A stretch of DNA of 64,000 nucleotides from Halorussus marinus (GTDB lineage Archaea > Halobacteriota > Halobacteria > Halobacteriales > Haladaptataceae). A program made the translations under genes and the position numbers. Under the pieces are notes generated by a model that was not told the DNA's origin, did no database searches, and worked only from the letters and a program-made list of their open reading frames with translations. This document shows positions 2,527-63,880 of the stretch, piece by piece. Location of the stretch: contig NZ_SBIV01000003.1 in assembly GCF_004765795.1 (NCBI RefSeq), forward strand, positions 372,001 to 436,000, given 5' to 3'. The stretch's first letter is position 1; each line of letters starts with the position of its first letter.

Positions 2527-3648
2527 TTATCCCATCCTATCAAGTGCATTTCGTCGGTCTTCAACTGGGGTCTGGTCGTACCTCATTGTCGTTTCGGGAC
2601 TCTTATGACGTAATTGAGCTTGGGCTGCAGACAAATCCTGTTCCTTGGTCATATATGTGCCAACAGAGTGTCTAATTGCGTACCAGCTCATTTTTCGGTT
2701 TTCAGTAGGAATATCTGCGATTTCACAGAGTCTCTGTAGTACGTAGATGAGTGACTGAGAGGTGTAGGAATTACCCTCTCTCGTTAACCAGAGAGCGTCT
2801 GTCTCCGCATATTCCTCATACATAGAGCGTTCCTCCAACCACTGCTCCAACGCCGTAGCAGTGCGCTCAGTAATTCCTACAATCCAGTTATCTCTGTTCT
2901 TCGAAGACTCCTCCTTCGGGATACGGAGTACAGAATTCTCAACATCAACCCACTGTACCGTAGCTCGTCCAACCTCTATCGGTCGTAAGCCAGCATCAAG
3001 ACTCGTCCACACCAAACTGGGGACCTTCCAGCCATTGGCACGGTTCCAATCAGACGGTGTTACCTCCGACTTTGGTTTCTCAAATCGCTGCGCCAAGTGC
3101 GCCTTCCAACTATCCCGTTCCTTTGGGGTAAGGCTATTGTACGCAGGGACAGAACCGTACTCAAGTGCCGCTTCTCGTATCTTCCTGCGTTCTTCAAGCG
3201 TCAGGTAGTCCCGCGCTTGCGTAGCTGACTGAGAGAAGGTATGTTCGGGTTCCCATTCAGCATCTTCTCCGAGTTCGTGCCTTTGCCACTTGAACAGCCT
3301 CTTCAGACACTTTTGGAAGCTTGCCTTGTGGCTGTTGCTGTAGTCCTCTTCGGAGTAAATCAGGTGTTGGATGTACTCGTCTGCATCCTCCGGCGTAACA
3401 CTCGTCGTATACCCTTCCTGCCTGTCCCAATGCCATCTGAAGAACTTGTCCGTCTTCTGGGCCACCTGCCTAACAGTTGCCGGAGCGTAGCCCTCAGCCT
3501 TGTCCGGGTTCTTTCCGAAGTGCAAAAGCCACCTTACGAGGTTAGTTTTGTACTCCTCGTAGTCCACAAACTGCCGGTCATTAAGGACTTCCCGCGTAGG
3601 TGCATTTACCACAGTTATTCCCTCTACCTTCGGAGCTTCCTCACTCAT
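2527..3648 (-). CDS. Tyrosine recombinase/integrase (haloarchaeal tRNA-targeting type)
   Basis: GLRPIE (R), SK, AIRH, LRH, MRY catalytic motifs; next to tRNA; start could be TTG 3675. Confidence 0.92.
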   Translation of the reverse strand: MSEEAPKVEGITVVNAPTREVLNDRQFVDYEEYKTNLVRWLLHFGKNPDKAEGYAPATVRQVAQKTDKFFRWHWDRQEGYTTSVTPEDADEYIQHLIYSEEDYSNSHKASFQKCLKRLFKWQRHELGEDAEWEPEHTFSQSATQARDYLTLEERRKIREAALEYGSVPAYNSLTPKERDSWKAHLAQRFEKPKSEVTPSDWNRANGWKVPSLVWTSLDAGLRPIEVGRATVQWVDVENSVLRIPKEESSKNRDNWIVGITERTATALEQWLEERSMYEEYAETDALWLTREGNSYTSQSLIYVLQRLCEIADIPTENRKMSWYAIRHSVGTYMTKEQDLSAAQAQLRHKSPETTMRYDQTPVEDRRNALDRMG

Positions 3649-3821
3649 GGCTACGCCCTCCGTCGATTCTCCCAACTATTGTTTGTAATGAGCCTGACCA
3701 CTTCCAAAACCGCGGTACTGCGTAGGGGTACGAAATTGAACCCACTACATTAGCTCTGGTTCCCATGTTTCGTTCACTTCCTACGGAACCAGAAAACTGC
3801 AAGACGTAACGCCGAAGGCGA

Positions 3822-3892
3822 TGCGCCGACCGGGAATTGAACCCGGGCTATGAGCTTGGGAAGCTCATGTCCTACCACTAGACCACCGGCGC
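3822..3892 (-). tRNA. tRNA-Gly (CCC)
   Basis: GCGCCGG acceptor stem, TGAGC-TTCCCAA-GCTCA anticodon arm, GGTTCAATTCC T arm. Confidence 0.97.
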
Positions 3893-53563: not shown

Positions 53564-55435
53564 ATGACAGACGACACCCCAGACGACTCGGAGACGACGG
53601 TATCGCTCTCAGTGTCGACGCCCGGCAACAAGCGAGCGATGGAAAAAGCCGAGGAGACGACCCAGCTCGACGAACGCCGCATCGCCACCGACGTCGGCCG
53701 CGGCATCGTCCCGCCGTACAACCCCGAGACACTTGCTGCCTTCCAGGAGCTCAACGAAACCCATCAGGCGTGCCTCCGGAAGAAGGCGCGCTACGAGGTT
53801 GGCTACGGCTTCGACATCGTCCCCCATCCCAGCGCCGACGAACCCGACCCAGACGGTGAGGCCTACCAGACAGTCCACGACTTCTGGCATGGCTCGGACT
53901 CGCGCTGGCAGATCGGGCCCGAAGGCACCGCCGCTTCCACACCCGAGGAGGTACTCGAACTCTCCCGGCTCGACTATCACGGGATCGGCTGGGCCGCCCT
54001 CGAAGTCCTCGTCGAGGGCGACGGCACACCGATCGGGCTCGCACACGTCCCCGCGACGACCGTCCGCGTCCGCAAGACTACAACCACAGTCGAGAACGCC
54101 GACGGTGAGGAGCAGGAGGAGATCTTGAGCGGGCATGGCTACGTCCAGATCCGACAGGGCCGCCGCCGGTACTTCGGCGAGGCCGGCGACCGGTACGGTG
54201 ACGACCCGACGTTCGTCGACAAGGAGACCGGCGATGTCGCCAGCAGCGTCGACGCCCTCGAGAACGAACCGGCGAACGAGCTGATCTTCATCCCGAATCC
54301 GAGCCCGATCAGCCTCTACTACGGGATCCCCGACTGGGTCGCCGCGATGCGGACGATGGCCGCCGACGAGGCCGCCCAAGAATGGAACCACGACATCTTC
54401 GACAACCTCGGCATCCCCCACTACGCCATCAAAGTCACCGGCGGGAAGCTCACCGAGGAGTCGAAAGACCAACTCCGAGAACTCCAGCAGAACCTGAAAG
54501 GCGAGCCGTACCGGACGGCGATCCTCGAGGTTGACGAGTTCGAGCAACAGACCCCGCTGGAAGCCGAGGATGGGAGCGACGTCGAGATCGAGTTCGAGCC
54601 GTTGGGGGCGACGGACTCGAACGACATGGAGTTCCAGCAGTTCCGCGAGCGCAACGAGCACGAGATCGCGAAGGTCCACGAGGTCCCGCCGATCCTCATC
54701 AACGTCACGTCGACGTCGAACCGGTCGAACTCGGAGGCGCAGGTCCGGGAGTTCGCGGAGGACGTGATCGCGCCCGAGCAGGCGAAGTTCGAAGCCCGAC
54801 TGTACCGCATCCTCCACCAGACCGCGCTTGGCGTCGACGAGTGGACGGTCGACTTCGAGCTCCGGGGCGCCGATCGGCCCGCCGAGGAGGCGCGGACTGC
54901 CCGGACGAAGATCCAGGCGGTCCGTGGCGCGGTGCCGGTCAACCGGGCGTTGGAGATGATCGGCGAGGATCCGCTCCCCGACGATCATCCGGTCGATGGG
55001 GAGACGCTGGTCGCGAACGTCGGCAGCGAGTTCGACGACTCCACCGAGATGGGCGTGCAGTCGATGGGTCGGCCGGAGGCTGCGCCGCCGACAGAGAACA
55101 AGGTCGGCGAGCGCTCGGGGGTCACCGTCGAGCTCGACGACCCGCTCACGCCCGACGAGGCACGGGTCGACATGATGCAGTTCGAAAGCTCGAATCTCGT
55201 CGCCGGCCTCTACGACCGGCAGACGCGCGACCTCTACATCCGCTTCCACGGCGACCCGGTCGACCGGATCTACGTCTACCTCGACGTCCCCGAAGACACG
55301 TGGGCCGGCCTGAAGGACGCCGCCTCGCACGGCTCCTATCACCACGAGCACATCAAGTGGGACTTCGTCTACGAGGAGCTGACCGACACCAGCGGGTGGC
55401 CGCAGATTGGGGCCGCAGCGCCGACCGACGACTAG
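53564..55435 (+). CDS. Portal protein (PBSX/XkdE-like) with C-terminal KTSC domain
   Basis: PPYNP, YYGIPDW, DMEFQQFR..EIAKVHEVPP; residues ~537-605 SSNL..GLYD....LYIRF..Y.Y.DVP......L..A.S.GSY....I. Confidence 0.9.
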   Translation: MTDDTPDDSETTVSLSVSTPGNKRAMEKAEETTQLDERRIATDVGRGIVPPYNPETLAAFQELNETHQACLRKKARYEVGYGFDIVPHPSADEPDPDGEAYQTVHDFWHGSDSRWQIGPEGTAASTPEEVLELSRLDYHGIGWAALEVLVEGDGTPIGLAHVPATTVRVRKTTTTVENADGEEQEEILSGHGYVQIRQGRRRYFGEAGDRYGDDPTFVDKETGDVASSVDALENEPANELIFIPNPSPISLYYGIPDWVAAMRTMAADEAAQEWNHDIFDNLGIPHYAIKVTGGKLTEESKDQLRELQQNLKGEPYRTAILEVDEFEQQTPLEAEDGSDVEIEFEPLGATDSNDMEFQQFRERNEHEIAKVHEVPPILINVTSTSNRSNSEAQVREFAEDVIAPEQAKFEARLYRILHQTALGVDEWTVDFELRGADRPAEEARTARTKIQAVRGAVPVNRALEMIGEDPLPDDHPVDGETLVANVGSEFDDSTEMGVQSMGRPEAAPPTENKVGERSGVTVELDDPLTPDEARVDMMQFESSNLVAGLYDRQTRDLYIRFHGDPVDRIYVYLDVPEDTWAGLKDAASHGSYHHEHIKWDFVYEELTDTSGWPQIGAAAPTDD

Positions 55436-60590: not shown

Positions 60591-61508
60591 ATGACCGGCG
60601 CGGGCAGTGGCGAACTCATCTTCGGCCACGAGGACTCGTTCCTCGGCTCGCTCGTCGACAGCAACAGCGACGGCACGCCCGACCTCTTCGACTTTGGCCG
60701 GAACGCCGAGCTCACCGAACTTTCGCTGGACAACCAACTCCAGCGGCTCCGCGAAGCCGGCGAGGTCGAGGCGGCCGAGAGCATCAAGCAGAACTTCGAG
60801 GGCGCCGTCGGCGTCACCGCCGTCGTGTCTAGCGACACGTTCAACGAGGTTGAGAAGCTCGTGTTCAACGACGGCGGCACCGGCTTCACGCCCGGGCTCG
60901 CCGCGTCCGGCCGCGTGTTCACCAACGTCCAGTACCCGACAGGGACTGCCGAGCGCGAACTGCTCGGCGTCATCCCGATCGACTTCAGCATCGACTACGA
61001 ACAGGGCGGGATGGTCTCGTACAGCCTGACGATGGCGTACGCCGACGAGCAGCCCGGATCGTCAGTCGACCTGACCACGGCGACCCGAGTCAACGACGGG
61101 ACGTCGGCGCCATTCCACGGGTTCACCCTCACTATCGACGGAACGAGCATCGAGGACCTCCAGTCGTGCTCGCTGTCGATCAGCGAGATCGCGCGCTTCC
61201 AGCGCGGCACGGATCCGACGCCGCTCCGAGCCGTGATCGCGAACCCGTCGACGACGCTCGACGCGACCGCGACGTTCACGTCACCGTCGCGGCTGGAGCT
61301 AGCTCGCGGCGCGGCGAATGGCCCGCCGCCCGACCAGCTGGACAGCGTCACCGGCACGGTCGAAATCGCCGTCGAGGGCTCCACGGTCTCGACGTACGAT
61401 CTCCCGAAGCTGAAGCCGGATTCGTACAACTGGGATAGCGTGATCACGCCGGACGACACGACAGACAGCACGACGTTCCACGTCAACGGCGGGGTGACGG
61501 TCGCATGA
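60591..61508 (+). CDS. Tail tube (major tail) protein
   Basis: Beta-rich, acidic and Thr-rich; GGAGGT SD; precedes the chaperone; no sheath gene seen. Confidence 0.75.
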   Translation: MTGAGSGELIFGHEDSFLGSLVDSNSDGTPDLFDFGRNAELTELSLDNQLQRLREAGEVEAAESIKQNFEGAVGVTAVVSSDTFNEVEKLVFNDGGTGFTPGLAASGRVFTNVQYPTGTAERELLGVIPIDFSIDYEQGGMVSYSLTMAYADEQPGSSVDLTTATRVNDGTSAPFHGFTLTIDGTSIEDLQSCSLSISEIARFQRGTDPTPLRAVIANPSTTLDATATFTSPSRLELARGAANGPPPDQLDSVTGTVEIAVEGSTVSTYDLPKLKPDSYNWDSVITPDDTTDSTTFHVNGGVTVA

Positions 61509-62038
61509 CGTTCAACGAGACGCACTTCGACTTCGACGACGAGGTTGACCGCCTCGAGGATCGGATTCAGGAGCTCACCGAGGCGCTCGCGGACATCGAC
61601 GACGACAGCCCGCAGGCCCAGCAGTTGGCTTCCCAGAAGCAGGAACTCGCCGCCCAGAAGAAGGGCGTGCTGTGGGCGCGTGGCTTCCCCGAAGACGACG
61701 ACCGCGAGGGCGCGTTCGAGAGCGACGACTTCCCGATGTGGGACGAGGACGTCGACGGCGTCACGCTCGGCGCGGTCCGGGCGAACGTCTACGGCAACAT
61801 CCAGAACGACCTGGAGAGCGACCCGAACGCCGGCGGCGGTACGTCGGCCACGCTACTCGTCGCCGAAGGGACGGTCGAGGCACCATATATTGACGACAGC
61901 ATGACCGACGCACAGCACGCAGGCGTCGTCGGCCAGCTGCATCCGTTCTACCGGAAGTGGGCGGAGGCCCGCATCAGCGAACTCCTGGATCCCGAGGTGG
62001 GAAACGGGAGGTACTCCGCGACCTCGCCCGCGGAGTAG
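61505..62038 (+). CDS. Tail assembly chaperone (gpG equivalent)
   Basis: Between tube and tape measure genes; slippery site near the 3' end. Confidence 0.8.
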   Translation: MTFNETHFDFDDEVDRLEDRIQELTEALADIDDDSPQAQQLASQKQELAAQKKGVLWARGFPEDDDREGAFESDDFPMWDEDVDGVTLGAVRANVYGNIQNDLESDPNAGGGTSATLLVAEGTVEAPYIDDSMTDAQHAGVVGQLHPFYRKWAEARISELLDPEVGNGRYSATSPAE

Positions 62039-62069
62039 CGACCCGGGAGGACGTCTCGCGGCGCGAGGT
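61999..62069 (+). other. Programmed -1 ribosomal frameshift signal (G GGA AAC plus stem-loop/pseudoknot)
   Basis: Heptamer 61999-62005 in X XXY YYZ phase; 6-nt spacer; TACTCCGCG/CGCGGAGTA stem; loop ACCTCGC complementary to GCGAGGT at 62063-62069. Confidence 0.8.
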
Positions 62070-62217
62070 GTACCGGTACGCGAAGTCGGCGTACATCGAT
62101 CGTGGCGGTAGCCCCCGGGTCTTCGATGAGATGACGTGGGCGGAGATCGAGGACTGGATCGCGATCCACGACATCATGGACGCTCGGCAGTCGTTCGGCG
62201 GGGTCCCCGATGAGTAG
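62005..62217 (+). CDS. -1 frame extension of the tail chaperone (gpT equivalent)
   Basis: Open -1 frame with no good independent start; GSPRVFDEMTWAEIEDW resembles gpT-like segments. Confidence 0.75.
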   Translation, partial: REVLRDLARGVATREDVSRREVYRYAKSAYIDRGGSPRVFDEMTWAEIEDWIAIHDIMDARQSFGGVPDE

Positions 62218-62258
62218 CTGGCCCTAAATTTAAGCGGGCAGAGACAAACAGCCAAGCA

Positions 62259-62636
62259 ATGAGCCTCAGCAGGACCCTCCCCGCAGTTGCTCTTGTCTTG
62301 ATACTGCTCGTTGCAGGGTGTGCCGGGACGGGGACATCAGCGCCGGAAACGACAGAAACCGAAACCGTGGCTGAATTGCCGCTCCGGACGTGGAGCGTGA
62401 CTCAGGACACAACTGATAACGGTAGCACCATCGAAATATCGGGGATGGTCCTTAACACGGGCGAGGAGTCCGTCAGTGGGACGATGGAGGTCGCCCTGCT
62501 GAACGAATCGTCACCCGTGGCAACGCGGACGCTCGAGCTGGAAGACGTTTCACCGGAGGAGCAAGTCGAATTCTCGGTTGAATTCGACATCAACGCGACC
62601 GAAGTCGACGGCCGTCGCATCTCCTTCAGCAGATAA
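62259..62636 (+). CDS. Lipoprotein moron with Ig-like/FxLYD-like beta domain
   Basis: LVAGC lipobox; ISGMVLNTG; TTTAAG box at 62229-62234; lower GC. Confidence 0.75.
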   Translation: MSLSRTLPAVALVLILLVAGCAGTGTSAPETTETETVAELPLRTWSVTQDTTDNGSTIEISGMVLNTGEESVSGTMEVALLNESSPVATRTLELEDVSPEEQVEFSVEFDINATEVDGRRISFSR

Positions 62637-62647
62637 CCGCTATTCAT

Positions 62648-63880
62648 ATGACCGAATTCAGTACAGCAGCACTCCTTGAGGCAGAGGTATCGTCAGCCAG
62701 CCTTCGAGCGGCCCGTGACGACATCGAGTCCGAGCTCGAGAACGCTCTGACTGTCGACGTGAACGCCTCGGCCCAGCTCGCAAACGACGGGGGTGGCGAG
62801 CGGGCTTCGCGGGAGCGGGCGATGTCCCGTCAACTGCTCGACTCTCAGACTGAATCTCTCTCGGAGATCCAGGAGGATCTAGAGGAGCCGCCAGTACTCG
62901 ACGAGTGGGAGATCGAGCACGACCTCAGCCGGACTCGGAACGATTTGCTCCGGAACATGAATGATTCTATCGAGAAAGGCAACCTCTCCAGCCGGGGCGG
63001 AGGCGGTGGTAGCCTGCTGGGGTCGATCGGCGGCGTTCTATCGGTATCCTCACTTCTCGGATCCGTCAGTATCGGAGTTGGGTCGCTGATCGCTTCTCGG
63101 GCGAGTCTCGAAGCATCGGATCTGATCAAGGATGCAGTGTCAATCGGTGAGGGCGCAGTCATCGAAGAAGGAGCGGACATCAGTGCCGCCGCGTTGGTTG
63201 CAAGCGGAGCGACGATCGCCGCGTCTGCGCTTATCGAAAACCCGCTCGGACTACAGGTGAGCGATCTCATCGAGGACGCTGTTGAACTCGTGCCAAGCGA
63301 CCTCATCAGCGAGAAAGCCGACCCTCGCGGTGGGTCCGGCCCCACCAGCGATGGATCGGGGGCGATCGACCCGAGCACGATCGCCGGCGGAGCAGCCCTC
63401 GGCGCCGGCGGTGGGATCGCCGCCTGGCTCGCCAGACAGGGCGGCGCCAGCTCCCTGATCGGCGGCGCCGGCGCGGGCGGAGCCGCCGGCGTCGGCATGC
63501 CCATCCTCACTCCCGAGATGCTCCCCGAAGGGAGTGCGCTGCGGACGAACCCGCGGACGGGCGAGTCGGCGCCGCCGTCGATCCTCACCGAGCAGGGCCG
63601 CAAGGAGCGACTCGGCCCGATCGTCGACTTCATCACCGGCATCGCCGGCGGCGGCAGCGACGGCAAGGGCTCGACGTCCGGGTCGCAGGGATCGACGTCG
63701 TCGAACCAGGCCCGGGACCGCAAGCGGGCCCGTCAAGAGATTACGTACTCGCCGACGTTCAAGCTGGACACGACCGAGCTGGAGCGACGGCAGCGCCAGG
63801 AGCTCCGGAAGCTCGAGCGCCGCATCCAAGAGCTGGAGAACGGCCTTACAGGCGGCAGCGGCGGCCTTCCCGGCCGATAG
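62648..63880 (+). CDS. Short tape measure-like protein
   Basis: Position after the chaperone; helical N-terminus, A/G/S-rich middle, ITYSPTF plus coiled-coil C-terminus. Confidence 0.6.
   Translation: MTEFSTAALLEAEVSSASLRAARDDIESELENALTVDVNASAQLANDGGGERASRERAMSRQLLDSQTESLSEIQEDLEEPPVLDEWEIEHDLSRTRNDLLRNMNDSIEKGNLSSRGGGGGSLLGSIGGVLSVSSLLGSVSIGVGSLIASRASLEASDLIKDAVSIGEGAVIEEGADISAAALVASGATIAASALIENPLGLQVSDLIEDAVELVPSDLISEKADPRGGSGPTSDGSGAIDPSTIAGGAALGAGGGIAAWLARQGGASSLIGGAGAGGAAGVGMPILTPEMLPEGSALRTNPRTGESAPPSILTEQGRKERLGPIVDFITGIAGGGSDGKGSTSGSQGSTSSNQARDRKRARQEITYSPTFKLDTTELERRQRQELRKLERRIQELENGLTGGSGGLPGR

Follow-up and report, generated by a model that had tools for sequence, protein, structure and literature searches.

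Does this haloarchaeal provirus produce a lengthened form of its tail assembly chaperone through a -1 ribosomal frameshift, and, if so, is the shift stimulated by an RNA pseudoknot? The window, that is, the whole stretch of 64,000 nt analysed here, lies on a contig of a 3.76-Mb genome (99.97% complete), and Haloarcula and Salinibaculum are among the relatives of this host genome. The terminase, portal, maturation protease and capsid genes are all located upstream of the chaperone gene. The latter is flanked upstream by a tail tube gene and downstream by a tape measure gene that is assigned by position only, with one inserted gene in between:

60591..61508, + strand: gene for the tail tube protein, 305 aa, immediately before the chaperone gene, which it overlaps by ATGA
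61505..62038, + strand: tail assembly chaperone G, 177 aa, 0 frame, from its phrog_19457 match and fold matches
62005..62217, + strand: T domain, 70 aa, -1 frame, C-terminal part of the predicted 237-aa GT fusion
62259..62636, + strand: gene inserted between T and the tape measure candidate, 125 aa, lipoprotein-like signal (LLLVAGC)
62648..63880, + strand: tape measure candidate, 410 aa, by position

The tube gene matches the Pfam family PF18906 (Phage_tube_2) with 27.7 bits, the cut-off being 27, and phrog_18409 with an E-value of 6e-60. The N-terminus of the 410-aa ORF resembles the ORF that directly follows T in relatives; this ORF matched no tape-measure family and has no clear similarity to BJ1 gp62 (E 0.28). 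The inserted gene has a faint CARDB match below the cut-off and is missing from the same place in loci L001, L002, L004, L005, L065, L072 and L073. An AT-rich, TATA-like stretch (62226-62234) precedes the insert, and other relatives carry different inserts at this position. A promoter and terminator scan based on a sigma-70 model was uninformative. Elsewhere in the window, the portal ORF (53564-55435) has a C-terminal extension (approximately residues 525-608) that matches separate PHROG families of unknown function, and a tyrosine integrase gene (2527-3675) adjoins a tRNA-Gly call (3822-3892) about 42 kb upstream of the virion module.

G matches phrog_19457 (E 2.6e-22), which it has in common with BJ1 gp61. 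Its AlphaFold model (mean pLDDT 83.8) contains an N-terminal helical hairpin. Compared with 48,161 chains, the model best matches YqbN (Z 6.1, rmsd 4.3, 98 aligned), which we take to be an XkdN-type chaperone, followed by the HK97 tail assembly chaperone (Z 5.7, rmsd 3.5, 87 aligned). The two matches head the list but are weak, with middling Z-scores, and they offer a fold lead to a tail chaperone. The tail chaperone of HCTV-1 ranks fourth for G in BFVD (E 0.083), a profile comparison of G with HCTV-1 G returned nothing (probability 0.1), TM-scores against the Atlas TAC clusters were 0.40-0.44, and a Pfam search of G found no TAC family match. Most likely, phrog_19457 represents a tail chaperone with a missing GT product.

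Close to the end of G are the following two elements:

61999..62005, + strand: slippery heptamer G GGA AAC, -1 shift site, identical in 54/56 non-redundant copies
62006..62011, + strand: spacer, 6 nt, from the sequence

As an earlier note on this DNA had stated, the heptamer is in phase with the 177-aa ORF at 61505-62038 and is followed by a 6-nt spacer (GGGAGG). Its predicted products, of 177 aa and, by a -1 fusion with the junction EVGN-REVLRDL, of 237 aa, were also obtained here.

The conservation of the heptamer was assessed in 93 fetched loci, the window's own copy and some duplicates among them. In 87/93, an in-phase X XXY YYZ heptamer occurs within the last 150 nt of G. The remaining six comprise partial matches in unrelated ORFs (L013, L069 and L070), loci without a profile match (L071 and L092), and L067 (G449), an apparent G homolog with no canonical heptamer near its end, which may use another site or have lost it. 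Dereplication at 85% left 56 loci, the window included; one of the loci, L035, had two candidate sites, the later of which was taken. These 56 carry G GGA AAC in 54 cases, G GGA AAT in one and A AAA AAC in one. GGA makes up 7% of the host's Gly codons, yet it is found at 55/56 shift sites, always after a G. In a crude set of host ORFs, the G GGA AAC form accounts for 22 of 1437 Gly-AAC pairs, with 22 occurrences observed against 31 expected, which is too weak to be taken as avoidance of the heptamer in host genes. The genome contains another provirus, distantly related (G000:C13:36784-37320; L059), in which G GGA AAC likewise occurs, together with a T of 61 aa. As judged from these loci, the near-invariant heptamer is strongly supported as a conserved signal. 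Gene context, fold leads and this heptamer together strongly support the earlier note's proposal of a -1 G/GT frameshift in a proviral tail chaperone, and we regard the predicted shift as very probably real.

The -1 frame encodes a T of 46-75 aa in 56/56 loci. An open -1 frame alone proves little, because the +1 frame is also open for 45 codons or more in 22/56; it is the protein-level conservation of T that counts, and this extends well beyond the G stop. The T domain of the window is matched at E<0.001 by 22/55 other T domains. Among the Atlas clusters that have a Pfam family, P2 GpE lies nearest to it (score 0.91), which offers a lead only to a relationship with the P2 GpE family. This conserved second ORF is often start-less: for a T of 30 aa or more, 28/56 loci have no ATG and 17/56 have no ATG, GTG or TTG start at all.

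Downstream of the spacer, the window contains the elements of a possible structured stimulator:

62012..62037, + strand: stem-loop 1, 9-bp stem and 8-nt loop, candidate stimulator in this lineage, from the sequence and a recoding p of 0.005
62022..62027, + strand: 5' arm of the proposed stem 2, in the loop of stem 1, from the sequence
62043..62061, + strand: possible third stem inside loop 3, -8.9 kcal/mol, paired in 25.0% of cells in close sequences
62063..62068, + strand: 3' arm of the proposed stem 2, not conserved, also paired in competing nested folds

The perfect 9-bp stem that the earlier note had described is present, with 62012-20 being the exact reverse complement of 62029-37. It reaches two bases into the TAG stop (62036-38) and encloses the loop ACCTCGCC. 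In the window, stem 1 exceeds chance expectation (p 0.01 by dinucleotide shuffle; p 0.005 by synonymous recoding of T), and the signal is weaker for the MFE of the whole region (p 0.053). Its register is poorly preserved: over 55 homologs, 231/469 cells are paired, and this pairing is carried by the central 3-4 pairs, which coincide with conserved Leu-Arg and Gly codons. RNAalifold predicted no pair and no consensus structure for 15 close sequences, and in L014, the sister of the window, stems of at least 4 bp are absent at spacers of 4-10. A search of Rfam gave three matches, all far below the gathering scores. The odds that the 9-bp hairpin contributes to shifting in this virus are perhaps even.

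Family-wide, there is a modest excess of structure downstream of the heptamer, although kin are not independent and the figures therefore overstate its significance. Perfect stems that score -15 or lower at the right spacer are present in 8/56 loci (14%), a share reached by 0/78 control offsets, and the family MFE z against synonymous recoding is -0.51 +/- 0.17, compared with +0.10 to -0.22 for five controls. The number of loci with p<=0.05 for MFE (9/56) is close to that in controls (4-8), and in the MFE profile along the gene the mean z of -0.42 at +5 has its equal at -60 (-0.45). On the tree, the eight strong stems show a scattered distribution, with 7 changes against a shuffled mean of 7.7. 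Two other candidate signals were rejected. An upstream Shine-Dalgarno-like stimulator was found in 6/56 loci and in 0-8 across 15 control windows, and is not a conserved feature. The GGA bias at the Arg-Gly motif was discarded as pairing evidence because GGA is likewise frequent at the remaining Gly codons of the overlap (48/93).

The earlier note went further and proposed an H-type pseudoknot downstream of the heptamer, with a possible third stem, as the stimulator. In the full form of this model, a three-stem knot 6 nt downstream would be the working stimulator in this virus, and other lineages would use independently evolved structures. Its geometrical part stands, with one correction. Positions 62021-27 are exactly complementary to 62063-69, as had been claimed, and a third stem is present (62043-49 with 62055-61, with one G.G mismatch). 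Classical H-type geometry does not allow a loop 1 of 0 nt, which is what all 7 stem-2 pairs would leave, and stem 2 was thus scored as 6 bp. With stem 2 trimmed in this way, the slippery site, the canonical spacer and the two crossing stems form a feasible H-type arrangement of stem 1 (9 bp), loop 1 (1 nt), stem 2 (6 bp, 62022-27/62063-68), loop 2 (1 nt) and loop 3 (25 nt). By an approximation that includes a penalty term, the knot, stem 3 included, comes to an energy of -29.1 and the best nested fold over its span to -29.2, and the whole knot is unusual against synonymous recoding (p about 0.006). At several positions, for example 62013/62036 and 62024/62066, a base specific to the window completes a pair that relatives leave mismatched. 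Among the sampled provirus positions with as strong a stem 1 (n=43), an equally strong stem 2 exists only at this site.

Against this, the significance of the knot comes from stem 1. Given stem 1, the p-value of stem 2 is 0.16 by base shuffle and 0.39 by synonymous recoding; it is unremarkable under recoding because it pairs Leu CTC with Glu GAG, common codons that are reverse-complementary. When the context is extended to 62130, a nested fold is ahead by ~11 kcal/mol in the same approximate scoring, and the stem-2 arm is also taken up by other nested folds, either in local pairing or in a long rod formed in place of stem 1. Covariation in related proviruses, the check that the earlier note had suggested, revealed neither a compensatory stem-2 change nor a consensus fold. 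Of the stem-2 cells in 14 distinct close sequences, 34.5% are paired, a value inside the 28.9-45.2% given by slid controls of the whole structure; over 55 homologs, 111/318 cells are paired, which falls within the 33-48% of slid controls. The covariation score of 0.040 compares with 0.033 after shuffling, and 125/500 shuffles scored as high. In the 5' arm of stem 2, the -1 frame reads Asp-Leu-Ala and the 0 frame Thr-Ser-Pro, and coding in two frames may be the explanation for the conservation of this arm.

Homologs are only about 55-75% alike, so that the knot could be a recent gain. Very close relatives were sought by an exact-pattern scan of viral contigs (0 hits), a T-domain scan of viral contigs (none) and a DNA search of 401 genomes, in which nothing was closer than about 70%. 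Contigs covering the site in runs X1 and X2 had 77 differences in 1384 nt and 32 in 274 nt; a search of sequencing runs listed no RNA run that carries it. Across the family, knot scores of -10 or lower are found in 9/56 loci against a control mean of 3.2, a number reached by 1/37 controls, and the combined stem-2 p over 12 sequences with a strong stem 1 is 0.01 by a base shuffle whose null ignores codon complementarity. L015 has a knot with the same loop lengths (loop 1 of 1 nt, loop 3 of 25 nt) that is formed via CGAGG in a shifted register. A strong predicted stem with 8-10 bp of loop-to-downstream pairing was observed in L038 (-22.7), L066 (-19.6) and other BJ1-like loci. This pairing may be a by-product of Asp GAC and Val GTC codons, and it is absent from L042, L084 and L089. 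Overall, the proposed stimulator is geometrically possible and nearly isoenergetic with nested folds in its own span, but it is neither conserved nor marked by compensatory change. We consider a functional pseudoknot in this virus unlikely. The same low probability applies to the full form of the model, and to a version of it in which this lineage recently evolved a three-stem H-type pseudoknot of coronavirus-like layout that stimulates the -1 shift on haloarchaeal ribosomes, and in which hairpins or knots arose repeatedly and independently next to the fixed family heptamer, where they tune the G:GT ratio.

Alternatively, T might be translated as a small protein of its own, either from GTG 62068 or through termination-reinitiation, in which case the fusion would be unneeded. 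The G stop overlaps a T-frame GTG or ATG (GTGA/ATGA) in 22/56 loci (e.g. L001, L015 and L065), termination-reinitiation at such overlaps has been demonstrated in H. volcanii, as reported in the available portion of PMC6728339, and an Atlas entry has T called from residue 22. In the window, however, the stop is 30 nt from the GTG and there is no overlap. Moreover, no usable start is present in 17/56 loci, the Leu...Gly motif lies upstream of any start in 44/56 T frames, and both this motif and the invariant heptamer would be left unexplained. We find a separate T highly improbable as a replacement for the fusion, though it could coexist with shifting in some lineages: reinitiation at the GTGA/ATGA overlap may add free T there, but not in the window. 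Least credible of all, and largely refuted by codon-level conservation, is the reading in which requirements of the protein preserve the Gly-Asn heptamer and T has no function; it could appeal to the open alternative frames that are common in GC-rich DNA, as seen above for the +1 frame, but not to the near-exclusive use of a rare Gly codon at the shift site or to a T that is conserved as a protein well past the G stop.

The best explanation, to which we assign a probability of roughly 0.75, is that the locus is a lambda-type G/GT tail assembly chaperone gene in a siphovirus-like provirus related to the Graaviviridae (BJ1 and CGphi46), with a shift that is driven by the slippery site and possibly tuned by the hairpin, and for which the knot is probably not required. 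The sequence anatomy, the conservation and the gene context are direct observations; the occurrence of shifting, its rate and any role of the hairpin we infer as follows. The majority of ribosomes would stop at TAG 62036 and yield the 177-aa G. A minority would slip by -1 on G GGA AAC, where tRNA-Gly and tRNA-Asn would re-pair on GGG AAA, adding the 70-aa T domain to give the 237-aa GT. By analogy with lambda, G would coat the tape measure protein and GT would recruit the tail tube protein. The lineage-specific 9-bp hairpin, 6 nt downstream, may raise shift efficiency, while the loop-to-downstream pairing, which is close in energy to several other folds, is probably not required. Both CTT and TTT anticodons are represented among the tRNA-Lys genes of the host, and, purely as an idea, this could explain the fixed A AAC in place of the A AAG of E. 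coli-type sites.

A frameshift in this gene is expected biology that is already annotated in other haloviruses. What the family adds is about 56 natural variants around one heptamer, with downstream regions that range from unstructured to strongly folded, as a panel for archaeal -1 stimulators, together with a corrected annotation of BJ1, CGphi46 and many proviruses. If the pseudoknot works, it would extend this class of stimulator to the Archaea as a pseudoknot-driven archaeal recoding signal. The novelty that the earlier note claimed was framed too strongly, given that the heptamer has already been published for HCTV-1 and that bacterial ribosomes are known to respond to pseudoknot stimulators, for both -1 and +1 shifts, according to the accessible sections of PMC5009743.

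Several archaeal precedents exist in the parts of the literature available. The -1 shift in the tail chaperones of HVTV-1, HCTV-1, HCTV-2 and HCTV-5 has been published (PMC5009743, PMC8211752), with G GGA AAC as the heptamer of HCTV-1 (PMC5009743), and the HCTV-1 record KC292029 gives the chaperone as a joined CDS. The heptamer of Hardycor1 is G GGA AAT (excerpts of PMC7911831). These five viruses resemble the window's provirus in having a haloarchaeal host, a chaperone gene between the tube gene and the tape measure gene, the latter a candidate by position in the window, and a -1 shift, predicted in the window, but they belong to a different virus group; HCTV-1 has the same heptamer, but by the same scoring only a stem of -7.4 and no knot. 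From the portions of the respective papers at hand, a +1 shift has been proposed for HF1-group viruses (PMC7230728), a stem-loop beside a predicted haloarchaeal -1 site for plasmid pLT53-7 (PMC5974055), and a -1 shift has been predicted in the capsid gene of a methanogen virus (PMC11375127). The available text of a 2021 review counts one archaeal case studied experimentally by then (PMC8211752). Our literature search, which covered some sources in part, found no experimental archaeal frameshift pseudoknot and no H. volcanii frameshift reporter.

The candidate knot shares its layout with known H-type pseudoknots (IBV, MMTV and the SARS-type three-stem form; the bacterial IS3 family and phages A2 and PSA), namely a 6-nt spacer, a long stem 1, a 6-bp stem 2, one base at the helix junction and a possible stem 3. 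IBV and the others have been demonstrated experimentally, whereas the window's candidate is without covariation and competes with nested folds; for IBV, 11 bp are needed in stem 1, as stated in the accessible part of PMC5009743. Lambda gpG/gpGT and its HK97 and P2 counterparts likewise combine a short G with a -1 fused GT, and the fold of G gives a lead to the HK97 chaperone; the window differs from them in its archaeal ribosome and in the N-terminal helical hairpin on G. In lambda, it is G that binds to the tape measure, and T brings in the tube protein (PMC5009743, in the sections available). The second slip codon also differs: the A AAC of the window is eukaryote-like, whereas G GGA AAG is shift-prone in E. 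coli according to the same sections (PMC5009743).

The closest isolated viruses to the window's provirus are CGphi46 and BJ1, Halorubrum viruses of the Graaviviridae. No paper was found that treats BJ1, CGphi46 and frameshifting together, and the main text of a paper on Graaviviridae-related proviruses, as far as it was available, names the chaperone without the word 'frameshift' (PMC11705971). The records of both viruses annotate neither the frameshift nor T. The two share with the window a homologous G (28% identity, same PHROG) and the same gene order. Their hairpin also starts about 6 nt downstream, but it is longer than that of the window and unrelated in sequence. In BJ1 after gp61 (L073) and in CGphi46 after HALG_00051 (L072), G GGA AAC is followed by a -1 frame T of 59 aa.
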